DNA from: a virus
Lineage: Duplodnaviria > Caudoviricetes
Reading direction: 5' to 3' (one strand)
Virus record (IMG/VR): IMGVR_UViG_2706795742_000001
Span: 1 to 64,000 of that record
Length of the DNA stretch: 64,000 bases
Part shown: piece after piece, positions 5,276 to 61,402 of the stretch
Numbering within the stretch: the stretch's first letter is position 1
Layout: every line of letters begins with the position of its first letter
Program-made: the position numbers and the translations under genes
Notes under the pieces: model-generated
The model's database searches: none
What the model was told of the DNA's origin: nothing
What the model saw: only the letters and a program-made list of their open reading frames with translations

Positions 5276-7147
5276 ATGACCGGACTCGTTGACGCACGAG
5301 GAAATCCGATTAACTCGAATGATTTTGCCAAGCCTAAAAGTAACCGAATGGACGATCCGGTAATCGGCGAAATTGGCACAGGGTGGAATGCCGAGTCTAA
5401 GCGGCATGGTTATACTGTTCCGTTCGGGAATCAGCTTGCATTTAATGTCAATAAGCTCACCATGAGCGATTATCGACTTATGCGCGATCATTACCAGGTC
5501 AATTCCAGCCTCAGTATTCTGACTTTTATGATTCACCAGATGGATTGGCGAATTTCTGGTGACAAGAAAAAGATCGAAGATCATGTGGACGAGAACATGC
5601 GCGCAATTTGGGCGCAGCTTGTTCGTGCGTTGAGTCAAGCTTTCTGGTCCGGCTATGCGCCGTGCGCGACCCAGTGGGAAAATGACGAGTCTTCTGGGAA
5701 GGTTCTGCTTACCAAGATTAAGGACTTGCCGCCGGAAGAGTGTGAAGTTCACTGGAAAAAGGTTGACGAGGCAAACGTCGCTTCCAAGCTAAAGGGCAGT
5801 GACGGACCGCGCGGTGCGTTGCCTATTGACCACCCGCAGGAAGGAACCTTGCGACAGATTCGTGCAAAGATGGGCGAAGATCGTGGCAAGGTTAAGATTT
5901 TCGACGGGATCACGCAGCTTGGCTACGGTAATATTCCGGTTGGAAACTCGTTCTGGTACCCCATGCTTATGGAGTATGGTGACTACTACGGCAAGAAGCT
6001 GCTTAATACCGCTTACCAGCCGTGGTTTTTCTCCCTGCTTATTCACATGTACTCGAATCGCTACTTCGAGCGATTTGGTGAGCCGGTTCCGGTTGCTCGC
6101 GCGCCATACGACGAGGAAATCGACGTCAACGGCAAGCCCGTTAAGGGCCATAAGCTCATGCAGGGTCTTGCGCGTCAGTTCCGCAATGGCAGCGCAATTG
6201 TGCTTCCCAATAACCGTGTTATGAACGGCACGCAAGACTCCGATATGTTTGAATATGATCTGGAATTCCTGGAATCCCAGATGAGAGGCGCAGATTTCGA
6301 TCGGTACTTGCAGCGATTGGACGAGGAAATTGCGCTGTCGCTGTTCACGCCCATTTTGCTGAATCGTACCGGCTCTGGCGGTTCGTTTAACCTTGGCGTG
6401 ACGCATATGCAGTTGTTCCAGTGGCAGGTTAATGCCGTTGTGAGCGATCTGGTGAGCTACATTAATAAGTACATCATTCGCCCGATGGTTCGGCTCAATT
6501 TCGGCGAGAAGGCACCAGTTCCTAAAATGGTTTTTCGCCCCGTTGGCCGCACCGACCCGGAAACCCTGCGCGCCGTCGTGCTCGAAGTCGTGCGCGCGGG
6601 CCGCGCCGCGCCGGACCTGACCGAGCTTGGCGACGCATTGGGCCTCTCGCTGAGCGAGATTGAGACCTTGACCGAACCGCCCGCCGAGCCGTCTGAGCCG
6701 CCTACGGACCAGCCAGACGGCGGTACGGGGACGCGCCGACCCGGCGACCCGCTCAACGGCGACACCAAGACGCCGGACCGGCGCAGCGGTCGCCCGGAGC
6801 GCTCGCGCGCGCCGAAGGGCACGGAAAAGCGCGGCAAGCTGGCAGCGGGAATGGCAGAGCGAATTTCGCAGCAGTTTGCAGCGGGGAACAAGAATCCTGA
6901 TATTGGATACTGGTCGAAGTGGCGCACTGTCCTTATGGAAGAATTCTCTCTTGAATGGGAGAGTGATATTATCTCGGACAGCTACAACATTCTTGTCCGC
7001 GATATTCATACTATGTATGAGAACCTTGCGGAAATTGATACTCCCGTCCTGGGTGATGTTCGCAAGGCATTTGAAAATATGATTACGACTAGCCTAGTAA
7101 GGGTTGAAAATGGCCTCAATGGACAAGAAGCCGCGAACTCGGAATGA
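5276..7147 (+). CDS. Portal protein (Mu gp29/DUF935-like) with Pro-rich linker and C-terminal extension
   Basis: Position after terminase; AGGAG RBS; motifs YFERFGEPVP and LDEEIALSLF..GSFNLGVTH. Confidence 0.85.
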   Translation: MTGLVDARGNPINSNDFAKPKSNRMDDPVIGEIGTGWNAESKRHGYTVPFGNQLAFNVNKLTMSDYRLMRDHYQVNSSLSILTFMIHQMDWRISGDKKKIEDHVDENMRAIWAQLVRALSQAFWSGYAPCATQWENDESSGKVLLTKIKDLPPEECEVHWKKVDEANVASKLKGSDGPRGALPIDHPQEGTLRQIRAKMGEDRGKVKIFDGITQLGYGNIPVGNSFWYPMLMEYGDYYGKKLLNTAYQPWFFSLLIHMYSNRYFERFGEPVPVARAPYDEEIDVNGKPVKGHKLMQGLARQFRNGSAIVLPNNRVMNGTQDSDMFEYDLEFLESQMRGADFDRYLQRLDEEIALSLFTPILLNRTGSGGSFNLGVTHMQLFQWQVNAVVSDLVSYINKYIIRPMVRLNFGEKAPVPKMVFRPVGRTDPETLRAVVLEVVRAGRAAPDLTELGDALGLSLSEIETLTEPPAEPSEPPTDQPDGGTGTRRPGDPLNGDTKTPDRRSGRPERSRAPKGTEKRGKLAAGMAERISQQFAAGNKNPDIGYWSKWRTVLMEEFSLEWESDIISDSYNILVRDIHTMYENLAEIDTPVLGDVRKAFENMITTSLVRVENGLNGQEAANSE

Positions 7148-48630: not shown

Positions 48631-49002
48631 TTATTCAAATCCGAGCAGAAACTTAATCAGATAATCAGGATCGACATTCATTCCTGCGTCGTGCATTCTC
48701 TGTTCAAGTCGACCCTGATACTTGCTCGCCATGAAGGTAATTGTCTTCTTGTCGTTTGCATATGGGTTCAGCATACACAACATCAAGAAAAGGTTTGCCA
48801 TATCCCTTGGTGGCAATTCCTGCAACCAGTTATCAATCACACTGTTTAGTGCTTGATTTCGCATGTTCTCAAGCTCTTGCTTGTTGTGATTAATGCGAGC
48901 GGCCTCGTTCATCTTATTGAAGAACTCCGGGTCGCTGGGATCAATGAAAAACTGGTAATTGGGATCGTTCGGGTCACTCGGCATATTATTACCGTCGGTC
49001 AT
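48631..49002 (-). CDS. Hypothetical protein
   Basis: 123 aa in operon. Confidence 0.65.
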   Translation of the reverse strand: MTDGNNMPSDPNDPNYQFFIDPSDPEFFNKMNEAARINHNKQELENMRNQALNSVIDNWLQELPPRDMANLFLMLCMLNPYANDKKTITFMASKYQGRLEQRMHDAGMNVDPDYLIKFLLGFE

Positions 49003-49222
49003 ATTCGTGAACCTCCACTACTCGATAAACCTTGCAAGGATTGGTTGGCTGTGCAATTCCGGCGCAGGCCGAAACAATCAAGCTATTTTCCTCTTGGACC
49101 GCGGCCTTAGCTCGGCTAATATCTACATAAGCGAGTCCTCCGATAACATCAATATCAGGCTCATGCCCAGTATCAGTATCAAGTCCGGTGACATAAGCTG
49201 CAATATAAAATTCTTCTGGCAT
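48989..49222 (-). CDS. Hypothetical protein
   Basis: 77 aa in operon. Confidence 0.6.
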   Translation of the reverse strand: MPEEFYIAAYVTGLDTDTGHEPDIDVIGGLAYVDISRAKAAVQEENSLIVSACAGIAQPTNPCKVYRVVEVHEYDRR

Positions 49223-49223
49223 T

Positions 49224-49679
49224 TTAGATCAGGTCCTCATGCTTGGGGCAGTAGATGACAATTGCGGCACCGAGAAAGGTGCTTGCAGTTTCCGTGGTAA
49301 AAAGCGGTCCGTCTACGAGCACGCCCATAACCTCTTCAAGCGACGCATTTCGATCAAGTGCGCTACAGGCGTCCCGTGCGAGCGAAATGTAGTCAGTCCA
49401 GGTAACGCCTGGCTCTGTAGTAATTCCACCGTCTTCGAGAACGCTTCGGAATACCTGAGCCTTTTGGTCCGCATTCAGCATTCCGTACTGGTCGCGGACT
49501 TTCTTGGTCGTGGTGGCCGTGGTGGTTTCGACCGGCAAGACGTTGGTCTCGGGGGTTTCAGTAACCGTAACCTGACTGCTAGCGGTAGAACTATTTTCCA
49601 GAGCACTGCAAGCTGTGCCGGAGAAGATAACTGCTGCGGCAGAAATCACCGCTAGCGAAATTCGTGCTGTCTTACGCAT
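49224..49679 (-). CDS. DUF732-like lipoprotein
   Basis: Signal peptide MRKTARISLAV...SGTAC; C-terminal ARDAC..L...FLGAAIVIYCP. Confidence 0.75.
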   Translation of the reverse strand: MRKTARISLAVISAAAVIFSGTACSALENSSTASSQVTVTETPETNVLPVETTTATTTKKVRDQYGMLNADQKAQVFRSVLEDGGITTEPGVTWTDYISLARDACSALDRNASLEEVMGVLVDGPLFTTETASTFLGAAIVIYCPKHEDLI

Positions 49680-49751
49680 TTTCTTGATCCTGTCTTGAGG
49701 AATTACTGAATTACTGTGAGCTAGTGCTGTTTTGAGAAAAAAATATAAGGG

Positions 49752-49849
49752 CAATTTAATAAAGGTCGCTCGAATAATGATCCATTCTACTGCCAATGCC
49801 CAGCAAGGATTATTCGAGCCGTTACCGCATGGCGACCTTTATTAAATTG
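49752..49849. terminator. Nested long hairpin (18-bp and 10-bp perfect stems) followed by T8 on the minus strand
   Basis: CAATTTAATAAAGGTCGC/GCGACCTTTATTAAATTG and CTCGAATAAT/ATTATTCGAG. Confidence 0.6.
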
Positions 49850-49853
49850 ATCC

Positions 49854-50001
49854 AAGTAATGCGTGGGTTAGAACTGCACTCCTGGAATGCACCAGGATCG
49901 TGTACCAGCCTTTAAGATACAGCTCTCATTACCGGGAATTTGCGCCCTCGCACCGGGGAGAATGCTAATGCGTAAATCTGGGACGACCCACATTATTACT
50001 T
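49854..50001 (-). ncRNA. Candidate structured RNA motif, copy 1
   Basis: Shares TGGGTCGTCC, CCGGTAATG, TAAAGGC, AACCCAC and stem layout with copy 2. Confidence 0.5.
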
Positions 50002-50665
50002 AGAACGGCAGTCCGCTACTTGCCGGTGCCGCATTATCTGCGGCGGGCGGCGCGGGCGGGCTTGCCGGTGCGCTGGCTCCCGGCGACGGCGGCGCGGGGG
50101 GCGCATTACCGGCGGGCGGGGTCGGCGGTGCGGAAGCGGGCGGCGGCGTCGGTGCAGCGGAAGACTGCCCCATTGCCGAAATACCCGAATCATCCGACTT
50201 GGCGGAATTCGTCTGACCGGAACGAACCTGCTCAGCGGTAGGAATATCGCGCTTACGTCGAGTGTCGTCAAACAGATTGGGCTGAGCGTCAACCCACTGC
50301 TGCGCGACGGCAATTTCCTCGTCAGTAAGTGCCTCCACCGTGATATACGAATTCGTCTTCGTCTTGTTTTCCTTCATGCGAAGACGAATCGGCAGGGTCT
50401 CTCCGACGTGACCATTCAGGTTGTCCCAAATGATCTCATTCATCCACATCACATGGATAAACACTTCCTGAGTAGTCAGGTCGAGAATATCCAGGTAAAG
50501 CGCCTTACCGTCACCAGCGGGAGAATACTGCGTTCGCATGTTCTCGCGCTTGTCAACGATATTCACCAGCAGAGGGTGGGCCGCTTCTGCGACATTTGCC
50601 GCCTTAAGACGATCACCCTCGATTTGCGAAGTCGGCTCAAAGTTGCCGAGCTTTCCCATTCCCAT
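50000..50665 (-). CDS. Putative single-stranded DNA-binding protein
   Basis: GGAG RBS; Pro/Ala-rich disordered tail ending SSGLPF. Confidence 0.6.
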   Translation of the reverse strand: MGMGKLGNFEPTSQIEGDRLKAANVAEAAHPLLVNIVDKRENMRTQYSPAGDGKALYLDILDLTTQEVFIHVMWMNEIIWDNLNGHVGETLPIRLRMKENKTKTNSYITVEALTDEEIAVAQQWVDAQPNLFDDTRRKRDIPTAEQVRSGQTNSAKSDDSGISAMGQSSAAPTPPPASAPPTPPAGNAPPAPPSPGASAPASPPAPPAADNAAPASSGLPF

Positions 50666-50718
50666 TTTGTTTTCTCCTTGTTTCGATTTTCGTTGCCCTG
50701 TTGCAGCGGTTGGGGAAC

Positions 50719-50752
50719 CGCTACCGCGTGGCACTGCTAACGCTACCGCGTG
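50719..50752. repeat. 12-bp direct repeat CGCTACCGCGTG x2 with 22-bp period, plus 7-bp hairpin at 50705-50722
   Basis: Copies at 50719-50730 and 50741-50752, upstream of the SSB-like gene. Confidence 0.7.
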
Positions 50753-50820
50753 CTGCCTACGTTCGCAAGCGGGACTTGCCAGAACTTACGCGGGTTATCG
50801 GCGGTGCTGTGTGAGTGTAT

Positions 50821-51144
50821 TTATACGGAAGTCTTCGAGATTACATCGTTTTTAATTAACCTGACGACCACCTCCCTGATTTGCAACAGAATACGCAGTT
50901 GTGAGTTAAGTGAGCGCATTGACTCGAAATATCCAGTCTCTAGACTGTTGAGTCTTTCCAGATCAGAAACTGTTTCATATTTCTTGTCCATGTTTTCTCT
51001 TGCGTAATTCATGGTATTTACCACCGCAGCAATTTCGGTGTCAAGCACGTCAAGAAGAATGTACAATCTCCGAGTCTCACGCCAGCTTGCAATCTTTTTG
51101 AGGAATTTCACTCTAGACTCCGCCACTGGGTTTAAGTGCAACAA
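50821..51144 (-). CDS. Hypothetical helical protein
   Basis: 107 aa; start uncertain. Confidence 0.55.
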   Translation of the reverse strand: MLHLNPVAESRVKFLKKIASWRETRRLYILLDVLDTEIAAVVNTMNYARENMDKKYETVSDLERLNSLETGYFESMRSLNSQLRILLQIREVVVRLIKNDVISKTSV

Positions 51145-52012
51145 ATCCGGAAGACTTGCTGCCTGACATATTTGGAATGTTCTTCTCGTCCTTGAACTCG
51201 CTAGAAATTTTACGGGACCAATAGGTCATGTAAATCTTTCGACGGTCAAGATCGCCGTTGAATTTCGCATTCCTAGAGGAAGAAAACTCTGGCCTGGAAA
51301 ATCTGGTATCGTTTTTCTGAACCATTCCCAACTTAATAGCCATAGGCCGGTAAAACAGCACTCGCTGCTTGGCATTATGTGAAAAGAACTTCTTGAACGA
51401 GGTAATGCCACTTTGGGTTAAATCCAAAATAGCTGGCACTTCATCCATGTTGTAGTCTTTTTCAACATAGTCAAGCGGAATGATAGGAATATACCAGTGA
51501 GGCTGACACAAAGGTCCGTGCTTTCCGTCCTGAGACCACTTAGTAAATGGACAGGTTTCGCACAGTGCTTTACTTTTGTCGTTCTCTAGGTATTTTCCAA
51601 GACCAACGTCAAACTGGGTATGAGGAAAGTCATTCAGAGGATGACCAATGTCACCGTCCAAAGAAATGCACTGCTTGCCTTTCATGGCAATTTTACCGCA
51701 GTCGGCAGCAAACGCAGAGTCGTTAAACTTGGGCCACATTTGTCGAGTCCGAATTACCGTGAGTCCATAGACGTGAAGCTCTCGCATGGCAGTTTTTCCG
51801 GCGACTTTCAGGAATTGCGATTCCGGTCCCGACGACGAAACAAAACGACCGTGCTTATGGTCAATGTAAATCCGTTCGTACCCATAGAGGGACCGGCCAT
51901 AATTTCCGCTAGTCTTCGGCTTGAATGCTGCGTTGAATTGGGGGAAAGTTTGGCTCGACAATTGGGATGTATTCACCATCAGTTCCTCCAAATCTTCCGA
52001 ACTTCTTTTCAT
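51113..52012 (-). CDS. Hypothetical Cys-containing protein (C.S.DG...CxxCP...W..G...C)
   Basis: 299 aa in replication/recombination region. Confidence 0.65.
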   Translation of the reverse strand: MKRSSEDLEELMVNTSQLSSQTFPQFNAAFKPKTSGNYGRSLYGYERIYIDHKHGRFVSSSGPESQFLKVAGKTAMRELHVYGLTVIRTRQMWPKFNDSAFAADCGKIAMKGKQCISLDGDIGHPLNDFPHTQFDVGLGKYLENDKSKALCETCPFTKWSQDGKHGPLCQPHWYIPIIPLDYVEKDYNMDEVPAILDLTQSGITSFKKFFSHNAKQRVLFYRPMAIKLGMVQKNDTRFSRPEFSSSRNAKFNGDLDRRKIYMTYWSRKISSEFKDEKNIPNMSGSKSSGFVALKPSGGV

Positions 52013-52433
52013 TGACTCTTTTCCTCTTCTCTCGCCTGTAAAGCTCTGGCAATCCCATAGAGAATGCTCCCGGCAAAAAGTGAGAGAATCGCTTTGGCTT
52101 TATCTCACTCTTGGCAAATCCAATTCGCTCCCATCTATCTAAAATTCCCCATACCGCACCAGAACTACACGACTTACTATCAATTCTAGTTACTTGCTTG
52201 GCAATATTCTCCGCCGTAGGAGTCCAGTCCTTCATATGGTTTACAAACCAGTCCTTAACCACATGCTCGACAATAAGTTCGAGTTCACCGCGAGCGCGCC
52301 TATCAGAACCAGTATCTTGCAATTCTGGAATCTCTGGAACAAACAAACCATTCCAAGGCTCAGCAAGCGTCGGCATGTTGTTCTTATCGTACTTGTATTG
52401 TGGATCGGGCTTTCTAGCCATTTTTCTCACCAT
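51909..52433 (-). CDS. Hypothetical protein, possible winged helix
   Basis: PTAENIAK...SSGAVWGILDRWERIGF pattern. Confidence 0.55.
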   Translation of the reverse strand: MVRKMARKPDPQYKYDKNNMPTLAEPWNGLFVPEIPELQDTGSDRRARGELELIVEHVVKDWFVNHMKDWTPTAENIAKQVTRIDSKSCSSGAVWGILDRWERIGFAKSEIKPKRFSHFLPGAFSMGLPELYRREKRKRVNEKKFGRFGGTDGEYIPIVEPNFPPIQRSIQAED

Positions 52434-52740
52434 TCCAAAATACTAGACGACGGATATAGTTCATGGTTTCTGGATCGTTCTTGCTTTCGAGTGCTTCAAG
52501 AACTGAGTTCACATGCATATCGCATAAACCCATATACAGTGGCGCGCTAAATGCCCTGTTCTGATTCAGGTAAACGAACTTCTTCGGATTCTTGCAGTAC
52601 AGCCCCTTTATTGTCTTATGGTCGCATTTTCCGTGAACAATAATCGACTTGTTCACAGCCATAATCTGAGGATGACTAGCAATCACTTGGCTATGATTTC
52701 TAAACTTTAGACCTTTGATAGCCCTAGCAAATACTCTCAC
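52414..52740 (-). CDS. Hypothetical protein
   Basis: 108 aa, 4-bp overlap. Confidence 0.6.
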   Translation of the reverse strand: MRVFARAIKGLKFRNHSQVIASHPQIMAVNKSIIVHGKCDHKTIKGLYCKNPKKFVYLNQNRAFSAPLYMGLCDMHVNSVLEALESKNDPETMNYIRRLVFWNGEKNG

Positions 52741-53021
52741 TTTAGCTCCTTGCCGAATAGTTGATAACTGAAATCTGGACCGAATTCAACTCGTCCGAGA
52801 TAAATTTCTGCAATGTAAATCCTGTCACCGGGGTTCAGCTTAAGCCTCTTGTGCTTAACTTCCTCTAGCTGATTCTGAAATGCCTGTTCACAGAATTCTT
52901 CGTCTCCGAACGCAAGAATCTTTGATTCGCCAGTGATTACATTCTCTGCAATTACTCGGTGAGTATTCCGTCCGATTCTGTTTATTCCCTGTTCTGCAAG
53001 TTTTGGTGCAACCTTCGGCAT
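52737..53021 (-). CDS. Hypothetical protein
   Basis: 94 aa, abuts upstream stop. Confidence 0.6.
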   Translation of the reverse strand: MPKVAPKLAEQGINRIGRNTHRVIAENVITGESKILAFGDEEFCEQAFQNQLEEVKHKRLKLNPGDRIYIAEIYLGRVEFGPDFSYQLFGKELK

Positions 53022-53318
53022 TTAATTCACCACCGGAATTACCTGAGTGACTGTATTGGTTATCTCGTCCGGCTGTCGCGGGCATGGCGGCATACCGAAT
53101 GTGTAATACGGTTTACCGGCCAGCTTTGCGGTGAACTTCATAAGTTCCTCCATGCGCTCCTGGAACTTGGACTTGATATTCTTCGCCAGTCCACAGCGAA
53201 CGCAAGCAAGAATTCCGTGGTCAGTGTCGAGCAGAATTGCTGTAGTGAAATCACAGCAATTACGGCAGTAGCTGTGGCCCACTTTTGCCGAATGAATTTC
53301 GTTCCAGTGCTTAGCCAT
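53022..53318 (-). CDS. Zinc-ribbon protein (CxxC...CxxC)
   Basis: YCRNCC...ACVRCG; start reassigned to MAKHWNE. Confidence 0.6.
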   Translation of the reverse strand: MAKHWNEIHSAKVGHSYCRNCCDFTTAILLDTDHGILACVRCGLAKNIKSKFQERMEELMKFTAKLAGKPYYTFGMPPCPRQPDEITNTVTQVIPVVN

Positions 53319-53652
53319 TAATTTCCTGCTCTTCCTGAATGATGTTCTCTGGATTGTCTTCGAGTCTGCCCGACCACAAGTGATGATCCATATTCTTCTT
53401 TGCCCTACTGAGAACTCGGTCATTAAGGTCTAGCTCTCGCTCTAGGTGTCGTGAGCACCAATAGAATTGCTTGCCGCTTTCAGTGACATACCGAAATGCT
53501 GATCGGTTTCCACACTGGTCAATTCCACCGGCATTTGTCCTGTACTCGCATTGCGGAAGTCTCGGACCCCTAACCTTGCTTACCCACGGATGGGAGCTTA
53601 GGTATTCGTCCCTTGACGAGATATTCAGGCTCTTGTTGAATTTGTCAGCCAT
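53311..53652 (-). CDS. Hypothetical protein with C..C..CxxH motif
   Basis: 113 aa, abuts recombinase stop. Confidence 0.6.
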   Translation of the reverse strand: MADKFNKSLNISSRDEYLSSHPWVSKVRGPRLPQCEYRTNAGGIDQCGNRSAFRYVTESGKQFYWCSRHLERELDLNDRVLSRAKKNMDHHLWSGRLEDNPENIIQEEQEING

Positions 53653-54450
53653 TTAGAAATTCACCGCCTCGTGCGCCGCAGCGGTATTAACGCCAATGTA
53701 TTCCTGAGTCTGACTCGGAGAAGCATGGCCGAGGGTTCGCTGAACCAAGATAATATCCTTGGTCTTTTCGTAAAGCTCGGTGGCGAATGTTGCGCGCAGA
53801 TCGTGCGAGGCAATGTTTTTGCCGTCGGGATGGTACACGTTGCAAAGATTGAATTGTCCGGTAATCAGATTCCGGGCCTGACGATCGGAAATATGAACGA
53901 ACTTGGCTCGATCATTCGTCGGCATGTTTTCGATAAGCACGGCGGCAAGCTCTGCACTCACCGGGATATTGCGCGTCTTTCCGCCCTTGCCGGTGATAAC
54001 AAGCTCATTTGTGCGCCGGTCCCAATCGCACGGCGCGACGCTCAGGGACTCGCTCACCCGCGTACCGGCCAGCGCGCCGAGCGCGATCAGTACCCGCGTG
54101 CGCGGGTCCGCAGTGCCCGCCAGAACGCCGCGTACCGTGCGAATTCCTCCCGGTACGGGGTGAGGTCGGGGAGCGCCGACGCGCGGCAGACGGTAGCCGT
54201 CCAGCGCCGTCGCGGCGTCGTGGTCGGCGCGGTAGCCGGACCAGCTTTTGAGAGCGGCGGCACGGGATTTCATTACCGACGGGCTTGCGCCAGACTTCTT
54301 GGAATCCATGATGTATTCCAGCGGGTCGGTGAAATTGGAATTCAGGAACGCGCGAATATTCCGCGAGTAAACCTTAATCGTATTCGTGCTCTTTCCCTGC
54401 CGTGCAAGATGATTCTCGAACTGATCCAGAATGGCTACCGTGTTCTGCAT
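53653..54450 (-). CDS. Tyrosine recombinase (XerC/D-like, no arm-binding domain)
   Basis: AGTRVSE, GKGGKTR, HDLRATFAT, LGHAS...TQEY catalytic set; 265 aa. Confidence 0.92.
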   Translation of the reverse strand: MQNTVAILDQFENHLARQGKSTNTIKVYSRNIRAFLNSNFTDPLEYIMDSKKSGASPSVMKSRAAALKSWSGYRADHDAATALDGYRLPRVGAPRPHPVPGGIRTVRGVLAGTADPRTRVLIALGALAGTRVSESLSVAPCDWDRRTNELVITGKGGKTRNIPVSAELAAVLIENMPTNDRAKFVHISDRQARNLITGQFNLCNVYHPDGKNIASHDLRATFATELYEKTKDIILVQRTLGHASPSQTQEYIGVNTAAAHEAVNF

Positions 54451-54462
54451 TTCTTTTCCTGT

Positions 54463-54479
54463 CTGTGAGTTAGTGCTGT
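54463..54479 (-). promoter_or_regulatory. 17-bp leader motif CTGTGAGYTAGTGCTGT (second copy at 49714-49730)
   Basis: 16/17 identical copies, each just upstream of a minus-strand RBS. Confidence 0.55.
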
Positions 54480-54480
54480 A

Positions 54481-54578
54481 CTTAAGGTGGGTTGGGATTA
54501 TGCTCTAGCCATTCCTGACTAGCGTTCACTCTGCCTTTACGCTCATCCCCATTACCGGCAGGACGACCCATTCTTAAG
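54481..54578 (-). ncRNA. Candidate structured RNA motif, copy 2
   Basis: P1 closed by CTTAAG..GGG/CCC..CTTAAG, CUGCC/GGCAG and CUAGUC/GGCUAG stems; conserved blocks shared with copy 1. Confidence 0.5.
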
Positions 54579-54586
54579 ATTTTGTT

Positions 54587-54967
54587 TTACTTCTCGAACT
54601 CCACCCGAACGGGTGTATGGTCATCGGGAATATCGTCCGGGTTTTCGTCCCCCATGACCAGGATTACCGGCTTATCCTCCGGTAGCGCGTCCATCATCGA
54701 ACGGATACCTTCTGCCTTTTTCTCGTCCGTGAAGTTCTGTGGACCGATTTCCCAGTCTTCCTTTTCTCGGTCCATCATTTCGCTCATGATTTCCATGAAC
54801 TCCGGTGTGCTCTTTTCCTTGAGAGCATTTGCCATGCTCTCTTGGCCGAATTCGTGAGTCCAGATTGGACGCTCCATGATTTCCTCCGCGTACCTGTGGA
54901 ATACGTCGAAGTCACAGAGCATGTATCCGGTAAACGCGGAAAGTACCGCGCCTTCGCGTCGTTTCAC
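54587..54967 (-). CDS. Hypothetical protein
   Basis: 126 aa, GTGA overlap. Confidence 0.7.
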   Translation of the reverse strand: MKRREGAVLSAFTGYMLCDFDVFHRYAEEIMERPIWTHEFGQESMANALKEKSTPEFMEIMSEMMDREKEDWEIGPQNFTDEKKAEGIRSMMDALPEDKPVILVMGDENPDDIPDDHTPVRVEFEK

Positions 54968-55293
54968 TTTTCGTTCTCCTGTCGGTATTTTGCGAGTTCC
55001 CGGCGATCCTTTTCCATTCGCCTGGAAATGTCCCGCATGTGAGTAAGCCGTTCGTTTTCTCGGGGCGTGAGTTCTCCCAGCTCGTTGTACTGAACCAAAT
55101 CCTTGTCGCCGATGTAGAACATGCCGGGATTTTCGGCGTCATCCAAGTGATCGAGGTAATCGTTCAATGCGGCGTGCAGGAACTTTCGATCTTCACGGGA
55201 AACCTTGTGATTCTTGAGGTTCACGCAAATGTCGCTGTGAGCCTGCTCGTACTGGATTTCCGCGCAAACGTGAGTGTTCTTGTCGTCGCTCAT
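54964..55293 (-). CDS. Hypothetical protein
   Basis: 109 aa, RBS. Confidence 0.7.
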   Translation of the reverse strand: MSDDKNTHVCAEIQYEQAHSDICVNLKNHKVSREDRKFLHAALNDYLDHLDDAENPGMFYIGDKDLVQYNELGELTPRENERLTHMRDISRRMEKDRRELAKYRQENEK

Positions 55294-55422
55294 TGATAAA
55301 TCCCTGTCTCTTGATTTTGCTCAGTCTTGCCTGTCTGGCCGTCCTCCATGCCAGTCCCTAAAGGCTAGCATGATTCCCCTTTAACTCGCAACAGTCCCCG
55401 CGAACTCGCGCGTTCGTGCAGG

Positions 55423-56289
55423 TCAGCGCCCGTTCCAGCCAAGCTCCACGGCGTCGGCGGGGCCGAGCGCCGCGTGAGCGAGCACGTCCGGCGTCAGGCC
55501 GTGGGAGAGGTAGGCAGAGGCTAGGCGACGTAAAAGGGAATTCTCGTCAGTGTTATTTGCACCGGGATTAAACGTGTCTTCCATATCCAGAGTAGAATCA
55601 GTGATGGTCTTTTTAATTTCACCAAAATCAATCTTCTCTGACTTGAACCAGTTAATCCAGCACAACCTAATCTGATTAAGGGTCATGGGATATTGCACGG
55701 TACTTGCTGCAATTTCATGGACTGCATTCAGATTGTCTGTGTACGAATACTGAACAGTGTCAAAACTGCCGTGCTCAGTGACATTAATGTTAATTGGCAC
55801 AAAGATTCCAATGGTAGGAAATACGGGCAACATGAAATGGCCTTCTATTGTCATTTTTGCAAACTCCCGAGAGTTCATAAGCACGGGCCAGATTTTATTG
55901 TCCCATACCACATTTTCGTTGGGGCTACAAGGAAGTAAGTCCGGCCTATTCCTGATCCAATCGGAAAATTGGAACATTCCAAAGTCTCCGGTAACGGGAC
56001 ACAACTTATCGGTGTCACTTACGTCATCGTGATCTGTTGAAAGAATTACATTGCACAAGCCAACCGGGCCGTAGCGTACATGAATATAGAAGTCCTCCTT
56101 GATTATTCTCATGTTTGATTCTTCTAGCTCAGACTCGAAATTGCATGAGAAAAAACTACCGGGCATAAAAGTCGGCGAAGCACCAGGATAAACATGGTCC
56201 ACGATCACGTCCGGAAAAACCGGAGACAGGTCACCCTGCTCCACTCCTGAAAATAGAACCTCTTCCACTTCGTTGATTATATCGTCCAT
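55423..56289 (-). CDS. Hypothetical protein
   Basis: 288 aa, GGAG RBS. Confidence 0.7.
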   Translation of the reverse strand: MDDIINEVEEVLFSGVEQGDLSPVFPDVIVDHVYPGASPTFMPGSFFSCNFESELEESNMRIIKEDFYIHVRYGPVGLCNVILSTDHDDVSDTDKLCPVTGDFGMFQFSDWIRNRPDLLPCSPNENVVWDNKIWPVLMNSREFAKMTIEGHFMLPVFPTIGIFVPININVTEHGSFDTVQYSYTDNLNAVHEIAASTVQYPMTLNQIRLCWINWFKSEKIDFGEIKKTITDSTLDMEDTFNPGANNTDENSLLRRLASAYLSHGLTPDVLAHAALGPADAVELGWNGR

Positions 56290-61024: not shown

Positions 61025-61242
61025 TGCTGAGCGTGTCCCTACGCGGCCCGCTGAGCGCTCCCCTGTACGTTGCCGGTACTCGGTGACCAGCGACCGGAAA
61101 ACGTCGCCTAGCGGGCCGCTCAGCGGGTAATCCTGAGCGCGTCGGCGCGGGCCGCTGAGCGGGTCGCCGGGTGACCAGCGCCGACGCTCAGCGGGTACCG
61201 GCCACCGGCGCGCGCTGAGCCGGTACGTCGGCACGCTGAGCG
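61025..61242. repeat. GC-rich array of palindromic CGCT(G/C)AGCG
   Basis: Perfect copies at 61049, 61117, 61153, 61185, 61234; near-copies at 61025, 61105, 61132, 61213. Confidence 0.8.
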
Positions 61243-61402
61243 GGTAACGCGCTGCCCAGCGTGCCGACGTACCGGCGCATTACGTCACTGTGACGAATGG
61301 AATCTGACCGGCTGAAAGTGCAGACGTACCGACTTATTAAACTCGGCGCGTTCTCTAGCTCGGTATATTTTTGTCGACACGGCAGTTTCGTAAATCCGCC
61401 CG

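Follow-up and report, generated by a model that had tools for sequence, protein, structure and literature searches.

Do two similar stretches on the minus strand of a phage genome encode a functional RNA, and if so, what could that RNA do? The stretches lie at 50001-49854 and 54578-54481 of the 64,000-nt DNA analysed here (the window), positions 1 to 64,000 of the IMG/VR virus record IMGVR_UViG_2706795742_000001 (Caudoviricetes). The parent record is 75 kb long, and the window shares 95-97% identity with the wastewater Gordonia phages GordTnk2 and GordDuk1 (Gordtnkvirus). An earlier note, made from the sequence alone, had described the stretches as two copies of an unrecognised RNA motif, possibly a ribozyme, riboswitch or protein-binding RNA controlling the recombinase and lipoprotein genes. 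Judged by the covariation of their stems and by their homologs in other phages, both stretches are genuine copies of a compactly folded small RNA, and the original observation is confirmed, even understated: the window contains three members of a previously uncatalogued family of structured RNAs of actinobacteriophages, two of a rarer form (el.1) and one of a widespread form (el.2).

The shared sequence blocks are present, in the described order, in both minus-strand stretches. The 10-mer TGGGTCGTCC has two exact matches in the window (49981-49990 and 54561-54570), a count that by itself is not above chance; the composite pattern CCGGTAATG-N(5-20)-TAAAGGC occurs exactly twice, compared with 0 in 100 shuffles. 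All genes surrounding the elements are on the minus strand. Both copies had been placed directly after a stop codon; copy 1 overlaps the TAA stop of the minus-strand open reading frame (ORF) 50000-50734 (244 aa), and copy 2 begins 8 nt past the stop of ORF 54587-54967 (DUF7736) and ends 30 nt before the start of a 265-aa tyrosine recombinase (integrase). Minimum-free-energy z-scores are unremarkable for the two copies (-1.8 and -1.2), and therefore the case for structure rests on covariation, not on energy.

The three stems noted before, different in sequence with pairing retained, exist in both copies. The fold drawn from them was right in its stems but incomplete, since it overlooked helix B, a GUAA mini-hairpin and the neighbouring el.2. 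Helix B is formed by the nucleotides directly 3′ of CCGGUAAUG and those directly 5′ of AACCC, and reads AGAGCUG/CAGUUCU in copy 1, GGGAU/AUCCC in copy 2, GGAAUG/CAUUCC in phage Orchid and AAGUUACU/AGUAACUU in phage GMA2; a G.U pair of this helix becomes A-U in GordDuk1 and GordTnk2. Because helix B is present, the pairing formerly called P2 (CCAG..CC with GGCUGG) becomes a long-range pseudoknot, helix A, whose 3′ strand is situated within the loop of the short hairpin C. The GordDuk1 counterpart of copy 2 has a hairpin D longer by 27 nt. In an alignment of eight distinct el.1 rows, 88% of the cells pair and 20 pairs show double-sided changes, and none of 500 shuffles matched the observed percentage of pairing or the covariation score, while slid controls paired at 30-45%. 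Helices B and D are 100% paired, with covariation at every pair. Because the copy 1 insertion prevented MAFFT from aligning the copies, a model-guided alignment was used; as it was fitted to the covariance-model helices P1, B, C and D, with pseudoknot A added manually for the count, these statistics tilt towards the proposed structure.

The insertion, which had been estimated at about 40 nt, was located within helix A. It carries a second possible 5′ strand of P1, UGCGAGGG (49945-49952), able to pair with the 3′-end CCCACGCA (49861-49868), and the covariance model aligned copy 1 through this alternative strand. A C-to-U change in GordTnk2 retains the alternative pairing as a wobble pair. The second strand may be the leftover of a partial duplication, or it may form an alternative conformer.

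As the earlier note had proposed, a covariance model was built and actinophages were searched, and both homologs and covariation were obtained. Sensitive blastn located el.1 in the Orchid group of Gordonia phages and in GMA2, invariably in unannotated gaps. The covariance model R2, trained solely on the Gordonia phages Orchid and Gibbles, scored 39.0 bits on copy 1 (E 8e-8), 37.9 bits on copy 2 (E 1.5e-7), 36.2 bits on GMA2 and 21.4 bits on the GordDuk1 counterpart of copy 2. Pattern scans of IMG/VR for el.1 returned Orchid only, plus chance matches in coding sequence.

The sister form, el.2, follows copy 1 directly on its downstream side. It scored 39.9 bits (E 2e-9) with model R1, which was built from other phages, compared with 7.9 bits on the opposite strand; this difference and the many G.U pairs together establish the strand as the gene-sense one. 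In a plain MAFFT alignment of 11 distinct el.2 sequences, 94.5% of the cells pair and 15 pairs are changed on both sides, which none of 500 shuffles equalled, while slid controls paired at 29-44%; this supports P1, P2, P3 and a pseudoknot of CUCGC with GCGAG of the P3 loop. With 20 sequences the values are 92.6% and 18, and covariation extends to nine of the ten pairs of P2 and four of the five of P3; the copies of the Bxz1 type contribute two complete compensatory swaps in P3. R1 scores 76-100 bits at 18 of the 20 loci, the divergent ones being phage Zany (46.1) and the window (39.9). The Zany element (L063:1497-1587) is missing most of the 3′ strand of P2 and scores 46 bits compared with about 95 in its relative DumpTruck; it is possibly a decaying copy.

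Are el.1 and el.2 one family? Their common layout, from 5′ to 3′, begins with P1, whose invariant inner part (GGUC/GACC in el.2, GGGU/ACCC in el.1) stands next to GUCG. A short joiner leads to the 5′ strand of helix A and a CG-GURA-YG mini-hairpin, followed by the long helix, named B in el.1 and P2 in el.2, which adjoins P1 along the 3′ strand, and by a short hairpin whose loop, UA(A)GG..., provides the 3′ strand of helix A. A linker in el.2, or the variable hairpin D in el.1, completes the layout, and the return strands adjoin each other. The set of features (P1, pseudoknot A, CG-GURA-YG, helix B/P2 and the UA(A)GG loop hairpin) is complete in all three window elements. On copy 2, R1 gives its third-ranked match of the whole window (11.1 bits), aligned in the shared layout, and the best R2 match beyond the true members is el.2 (12.6 bits). 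The two forms stand in tandem in the window and in Orchid. This shared layout and the weak reciprocal matches suggest that el.1 and el.2 are likely related. The tetraloop is GUAA in all members but those of the Bxz1 type, which have GUGA and thus keep the GNRA rule; we infer that it probably docks on the invariant G-C pairs of P1.

How widespread is the family? The core of el.2 was found at 75-90% identity in many unrelated genera of Gordonia phages, including Jumbo, Woes-like, Chidiebere-like, Stormageddon, DumpTruck/Zany, GMA6, GMA3, GTE7 and Apricot. A first blastn query returned 54 Gordonia phage records, and a member of higher GC content returned 195 Mycobacterium and 59 Gordonia phage records (about 250 in total), the former being essentially the Bxz1 group; it also matched an M. 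abscessus prophage. This second query, L050, comes from a metagenome-assembled genome (MAG) of Pseudonocardiaceae (G001, flagged as unpublished) and is also one row of alignment A9; all the phage matches found with it by blastn are public records, and our conclusions are independent of it. Pattern scans of genome contigs and metagenomes added four new copies, from metagenomes and one MAG contig, and one false match (L052). The first el.2 pattern had given six loci, mainly from the same isolates, and a looser pattern of the 5′ block 27 loci, 16 of which were chance matches in coding sequence. Each of the five phages searched whole with R1 has one strong copy. Among 151 Mycobacteriales genomes, searched under strict filters that left few candidates to be scored, only G001 matched R1. 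Weak R1 matches at 33.1 kb of Jumbo, 32.0 kb of Orchid and 61222-61273 of the window look like chance and were set aside. The last of these (plus strand; 13.6 bits, E 0.15) is a GC-rich palindrome with GGGUAACG in a repeat island and is probably unrelated.

In which settings do the elements occur? In most cases, 2-13 nt separate the element from the preceding stop codon and 19-46 nt separate it from the following start. The proteins encoded on either side of el.2 are unrelated, the exception across the family being the gene upstream of el.1, which is homologous in the window (50000-50734, minus), Orchid (L002:713-1483) and GMA2 (L017:445-1050); the window and Orchid proteins are 39% identical (phrog_14234). 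The C-terminus of this protein (...LPF/...MPF/...APF) resembles the acidic C-terminal tail of SSB proteins. In at least four copies (Jumbo, GMA3 and two metagenome contigs), el.2 is followed by a long terminator-like hairpin that folds independently of it. These hairpins are perfect over 12-18 bp (Jumbo, L005:1300-1375; GMA3, L028 about 6350-6445, minus; L053; L054) and are probably terminators, mostly without a clear U-tract. In the prophage prophi79-1, el.2 closes a convergent transcription unit, and no gene follows it on that strand. Bxz1, Pleione and Spud have it in the unannotated gap of about 90 nt between the transfer-messenger RNA (tmRNA) and tRNA-Gln, on the tRNA strand. This is explicit in the annotation of Pleione (tmRNA 263-697, tRNA-Gln 790-865); Bxz1 and Spud have the same layout by position, and the Bxz1 tmRNA is called by both ARAGORN and Rfam. 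In phages of the Bxz1 type, the element follows the tmRNA at a distance of 3 nt, and its P1 comes to within a few nt of the tRNA. A further motif of 17 nt, ACAGCACTA(A/G)CTCACAG, has two matches in the window and no others there (0.18 expected), and precedes the ribosome-binding sites of both downstream genes; it may act as a promoter or a processing site, or it may belong to a duplicated leader or intergenic unit. It is conceivable that el.1, with this motif and the alternative P1 strand, might have gained a local role in cis. The coordinates are collected in Table 1.

Table 1. Elements of the family in the window, their helices and associated features (window positions unless a phage locus is named).
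Feature	Position	Strand	Remarks
el.1 copy 1	49854..50001	minus	148 nt
copy 1 P1 outer	49995-50001 with 49854-49860	minus	
copy 1 P1 inner	49986-49991 with 49863-49868	minus	
copy 1 pseudoknot helix A	49978-49981 + 49935-49936, with 49905-49910	minus	
copy 1 insertion	49937..49977	minus	41 nt, lineage-specific, inside helix A
copy 1 mini-hairpin CG-GUAA-UG	within 49927-49934	minus	
copy 1 helix B	49920-49926 with 49870-49876	minus	
copy 1 short helix C	49916-49918 with 49897-49899	minus	
copy 1 hairpin D	49892-49896 with 49881-49885	minus	
el.1 copy 2	54481..54578	minus	98 nt
copy 2 P1 outer	54573-54578 with 54481-54486	minus	
copy 2 P1 inner	54566-54570 with 54488-54492	minus	
copy 2 helix A	54557-54561 with 54531-54535	minus	
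copy 2 CG-GUAA-UG	54550-54557	minus	
copy 2 helix B	54545-54549 with 54494-54498	minus	
copy 2 helix C	54540-54542 with 54522-54524	minus	
copy 2 hairpin D	54517-54522 with 54505-54510	minus	
el.2	49753..49848	minus	just downstream of copy 1
el.2 P1	49833-49848 with 49753-49768	minus	
el.2 pseudoknot	49827-49830 with 49796-49799	minus	AUGC with GCAU
el.2 CG-GUAA-CG	49820-49827	minus	
el.2 P2	49809-49819 with 49768-49778	minus	
el.2 P3	49801-49805 with 49788-49792	minus	
17-nt motif ACAGCACTAGCTCACAG	49714..49730	minus	between el.2 and DUF732 lipoprotein gene start
17-nt motif, second copy ACAGCACTAACTCACAG	54463..54479	minus	directly after copy 2, before integrase start codon
tmRNA/tRNA-Gln gap with el.2	Bxz1 L060:4998-5089; Pleione L066:698-789; Spud L067		

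Two annotations in host loci of el.2 deserve comment. In Apricot, a perfect el.2 (L016:1193-1288, 93.5 bits) lies within an annotated coding sequence (CDS), gp57 'DNA repair protein' (719-1429), which is probably over-extended in its 3′ part. In GMA6 (L059:2980-6135), a MoxR/CobS-like AAA+ ATPase and a VWA protein are encoded by Orf61 and Orf62, whose annotations read 'porphyrin biosynthesis' and 'von Willebrand factor protein', and el.2 begins 12 nt beyond the VWA gene.

Does the family correspond to any RNA already described? That the motif matches no known consensus was borne out by Rfam 15 (4227 models): there were no matches in the whole window at gathering scores and none at E<=10 over 49000-55500, and at the homolog loci L007, L002, L017 and L061 (E<=10) and L060 (E<=1) the elements went unmatched. 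A literature search by topic and by sequence string found no earlier description, within a coverage that mostly leaves out subscription journals, so that an earlier description is possible. Thus, conserved structure, compensatory changes and the lack of an Rfam family uphold the part of the earlier proposal that spoke of an undescribed functional RNA, and the genomic settings speak against its riboswitch part.

The RNAs that come closest resemble the family in part. Like tRNA and tmRNA, its neighbours in phages of the Bxz1 type, it has a similar length and a terminal closing stem, but it lacks a T-loop and an anticodon arm; neither the window nor the Bxz1 element received a tRNA or tmRNA call from ARAGORN, and the Rfam tRNA and tmRNA models end at the borders of el.2 in the Bxz1-type locus. 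Twister ribozymes (type P1, RF03160) are also small and closed by P1, with a pseudoknot between an internal-loop strand and an inner hairpin loop, and they occur in phage and metagenome contexts without conserved neighbouring genes. Nevertheless, the conserved letters differ and the family has a GURA mini-hairpin, and membership was rejected because there was no Rfam match and, by eye, the pseudoknot strand lies here on the 5′ side of the P1/P2 junction, opposite to that of twister. An HDV-like ribozyme was likewise discarded, as in our family the 5′ and 3′ ends pair together in a P1 backed by covariation, which is the wrong topology, and Rfam gave no match. Loop-E and SRL-like readings of the conserved loops, weighed by eye, were unsupported. 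YrlA and other Y-RNA-like molecules (RF02553) share approximately the size of a tRNA, a 5′/3′ closing stem and an occurrence in actinobacteria and phages, and Bxz1 encodes Ro (TROVE), but the family RNA has no tRNA-like T-arm module, and the YrlA model matched none of the elements, giving only weak matches on true tRNAs. TROVE/Ro was absent from the parent record, Orchid, Woes, Apricot and prophi79-1 and, among those searched, was found only in Bxz1; this, and the identity of GMA6 Orf62 upstream of el.2 as a VWA protein (CobT-like, with an AAA+ ATPase) and not Ro, led us to drop the idea of a Y RNA. The Bxz1 TROVE/Ro gene itself lies at 130.3-131.3 kb, 30 kb from el.2. RtcB was absent from the five el.2 phages searched and shows no co-occurrence. 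The tRNA cluster of phage T4 encodes two stable RNAs, C and D (species 1 and 2), which are small, are not tRNAs, are released by tRNA processing and have no known function. Our family has in common with them the location of a small non-tRNA RNA inside a phage tRNA array, but there is no relation in sequence or structure, and most copies of el.1 and el.2 stand among protein-coding genes. Pseudoknotted riboswitch aptamers (ZTP, preQ1-II/III, c-di-GMP-II) are alike in size, in the pseudoknot and in highly conserved junction nucleotides; they differ in that the family has no Rfam match to them, no consistent downstream gene and settings unfit for a leader.

What, then, could this RNA do? We tentatively favour, with somewhat less than even confidence, a discrete, stable and free-standing RNA that acts by itself and is not a switch for the neighbouring genes. 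In such a case, binding a protein in trans would be its most likely role, with a new ribozyme as the main rival. The RNA would be transcribed together with its neighbours and then freed as a separate, stable molecule of about 90-150 nt. In phages of the Bxz1 type, processing of the adjacent tmRNA and tRNA-Gln by RNase Z and RNase P would release an RNA of about 90 nt; elsewhere, the ends would be set by other RNases or by a terminator. The approximately 30 conserved unpaired nucleotides and the invariant core of P1 would offer a surface for a host or phage protein, for which the RNA may be a decoy, a scaffold or a cofactor, and the process concerned would probably be RNA metabolism or translation. 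We consider it possible, though rather unlikely, that the RNA is a new catalytic or translation-targeting molecule, either a self-cleaving ribozyme class or a tRNA-sized decoy or cofactor for a host RNA-processing or ribosome-associated factor, the latter of which would account for its placement between tmRNA and tRNA in phages of the Bxz1 type.

Several points weigh against the free-standing RNA. The location close to stop and start codons in most Gordonia phages fits a role in cis within the mRNA equally well, and the 17-nt motif behind both units hints that el.1 could be part of a larger leader. No partner protein emerged from the search for RtcB and TROVE/Ro in five el.2 phages. Among sequencing runs, the stretch occurs only in wastewater contigs labelled 'RNA-Seq', which are probably DNA and gave just variants of the GordTnk2/GordDuk1 type. 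As for the family itself, the evidence on el.1 comes from about four independent lineages and a model-fitted alignment, and the cross-detection of el.1 and el.2 is insignificant alone (E about 1).

A new class of small self-cleaving ribozymes, whose active site would arise from a conserved core of pseudoknot, GNRA contact and the invariant GUCG at the P1 junction, is an alternative that we regard as rather improbable but as compatible with all the contexts observed. Cleavage would detach what follows from the RNA upstream, which is the tmRNA in Bxz1 and otherwise an mRNA, and the start of the element 2-13 nt from the upstream stop, or 3 nt past the end of the tmRNA, agrees with this. A length of about 90 nt, a pseudoknot and some 30 conserved unpaired nucleotides are as in small ribozymes; the element keeps no fixed association with genes, and each phage genome carries one or a few copies. 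Two related units stand in tandem in the window and in Orchid, and known small phage ribozymes also cluster. Against catalysis, neither Rfam nor inspection by eye revealed a known consensus or topology, no cleavage site can be named, and the flanking ends in Bxz1 are explicable by ordinary tRNA processing. A cis-acting mRNA element, whose stable fold would block exoribonucleases or direct endonucleolytic processing and in this way set the stability of the neighbouring mRNA, is still less probable. The elements are always on the sense strand, intergenic, right after a stop, and either 19-46 nt before a start or just before a terminator hairpin, as such a device would be. Nevertheless, a mere barrier would have no need of about 30 invariant loop nucleotides, preserved at 75-90% identity between phage genera that are unrelated, a single copy per genome would be odd for a general mRNA device, and between tmRNA and tRNA there is no mRNA to protect.

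We give little credence to a riboswitch whose aptamer would sense a small molecule and regulate the gene downstream (for example integrase or DUF732 lipoprotein). In its favour, the conservation and the pseudoknot are aptamer-like, the ribosome-binding site of several phages follows P1 at a distance of 10-25 nt, some short alternative pairings can be traced visually in Woes and Chidiebere, and copy 1 has an alternative P1 strand. On the other hand, the downstream genes are unrelated, none exists on that strand in prophi79-1, and in phages of the Bxz1 type the element is inside a tRNA array; moreover, the terminators that follow fold on their own, and the minimum-energy fold shows no antiterminator that would compete with them. 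The unrelated flanks, the independent terminators, the convergent unit end and the position between tmRNA and tRNA-Gln together do not fit a riboswitch in a 5′ leader, and they argue against the proposal that the motif controls the recombinase and lipoprotein genes. Least probable by far is a repeat acting at the DNA level, such as a miniature mobile element, a recombination site or a protein-binding palindrome. Inverted repeats at the flanks of the units and the integrase gene adjoining copy 2 could be read in this way, but the stems covary while the loops stay constant, the pseudoknot pairing is retained, G.U pairs would become A.C mismatches on the opposite strand, and the element lies within a transcribed tRNA array in phages of the Bxz1 type. 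There are also no target-site duplications and no conserved terminal repeats.

Well-supported new classes of structured RNA are rare, and this family covaries strongly and has a pseudoknot together with a probable GNRA contact. It occurs in about 250 sequenced phage records, including the long-studied Bxz1 group. The covariance model helps annotators to fill the 'empty' intergenic gaps of actinophages and cautions against over-long CDS calls such as that of Apricot gp57. Tractable hosts exist, namely M. smegmatis with Bxz1 and Gordonia terrae with the SEA-PHAGES isolates, in which the family could reveal a new ribozyme or a new route by which phages manipulate the RNA metabolism of their hosts.

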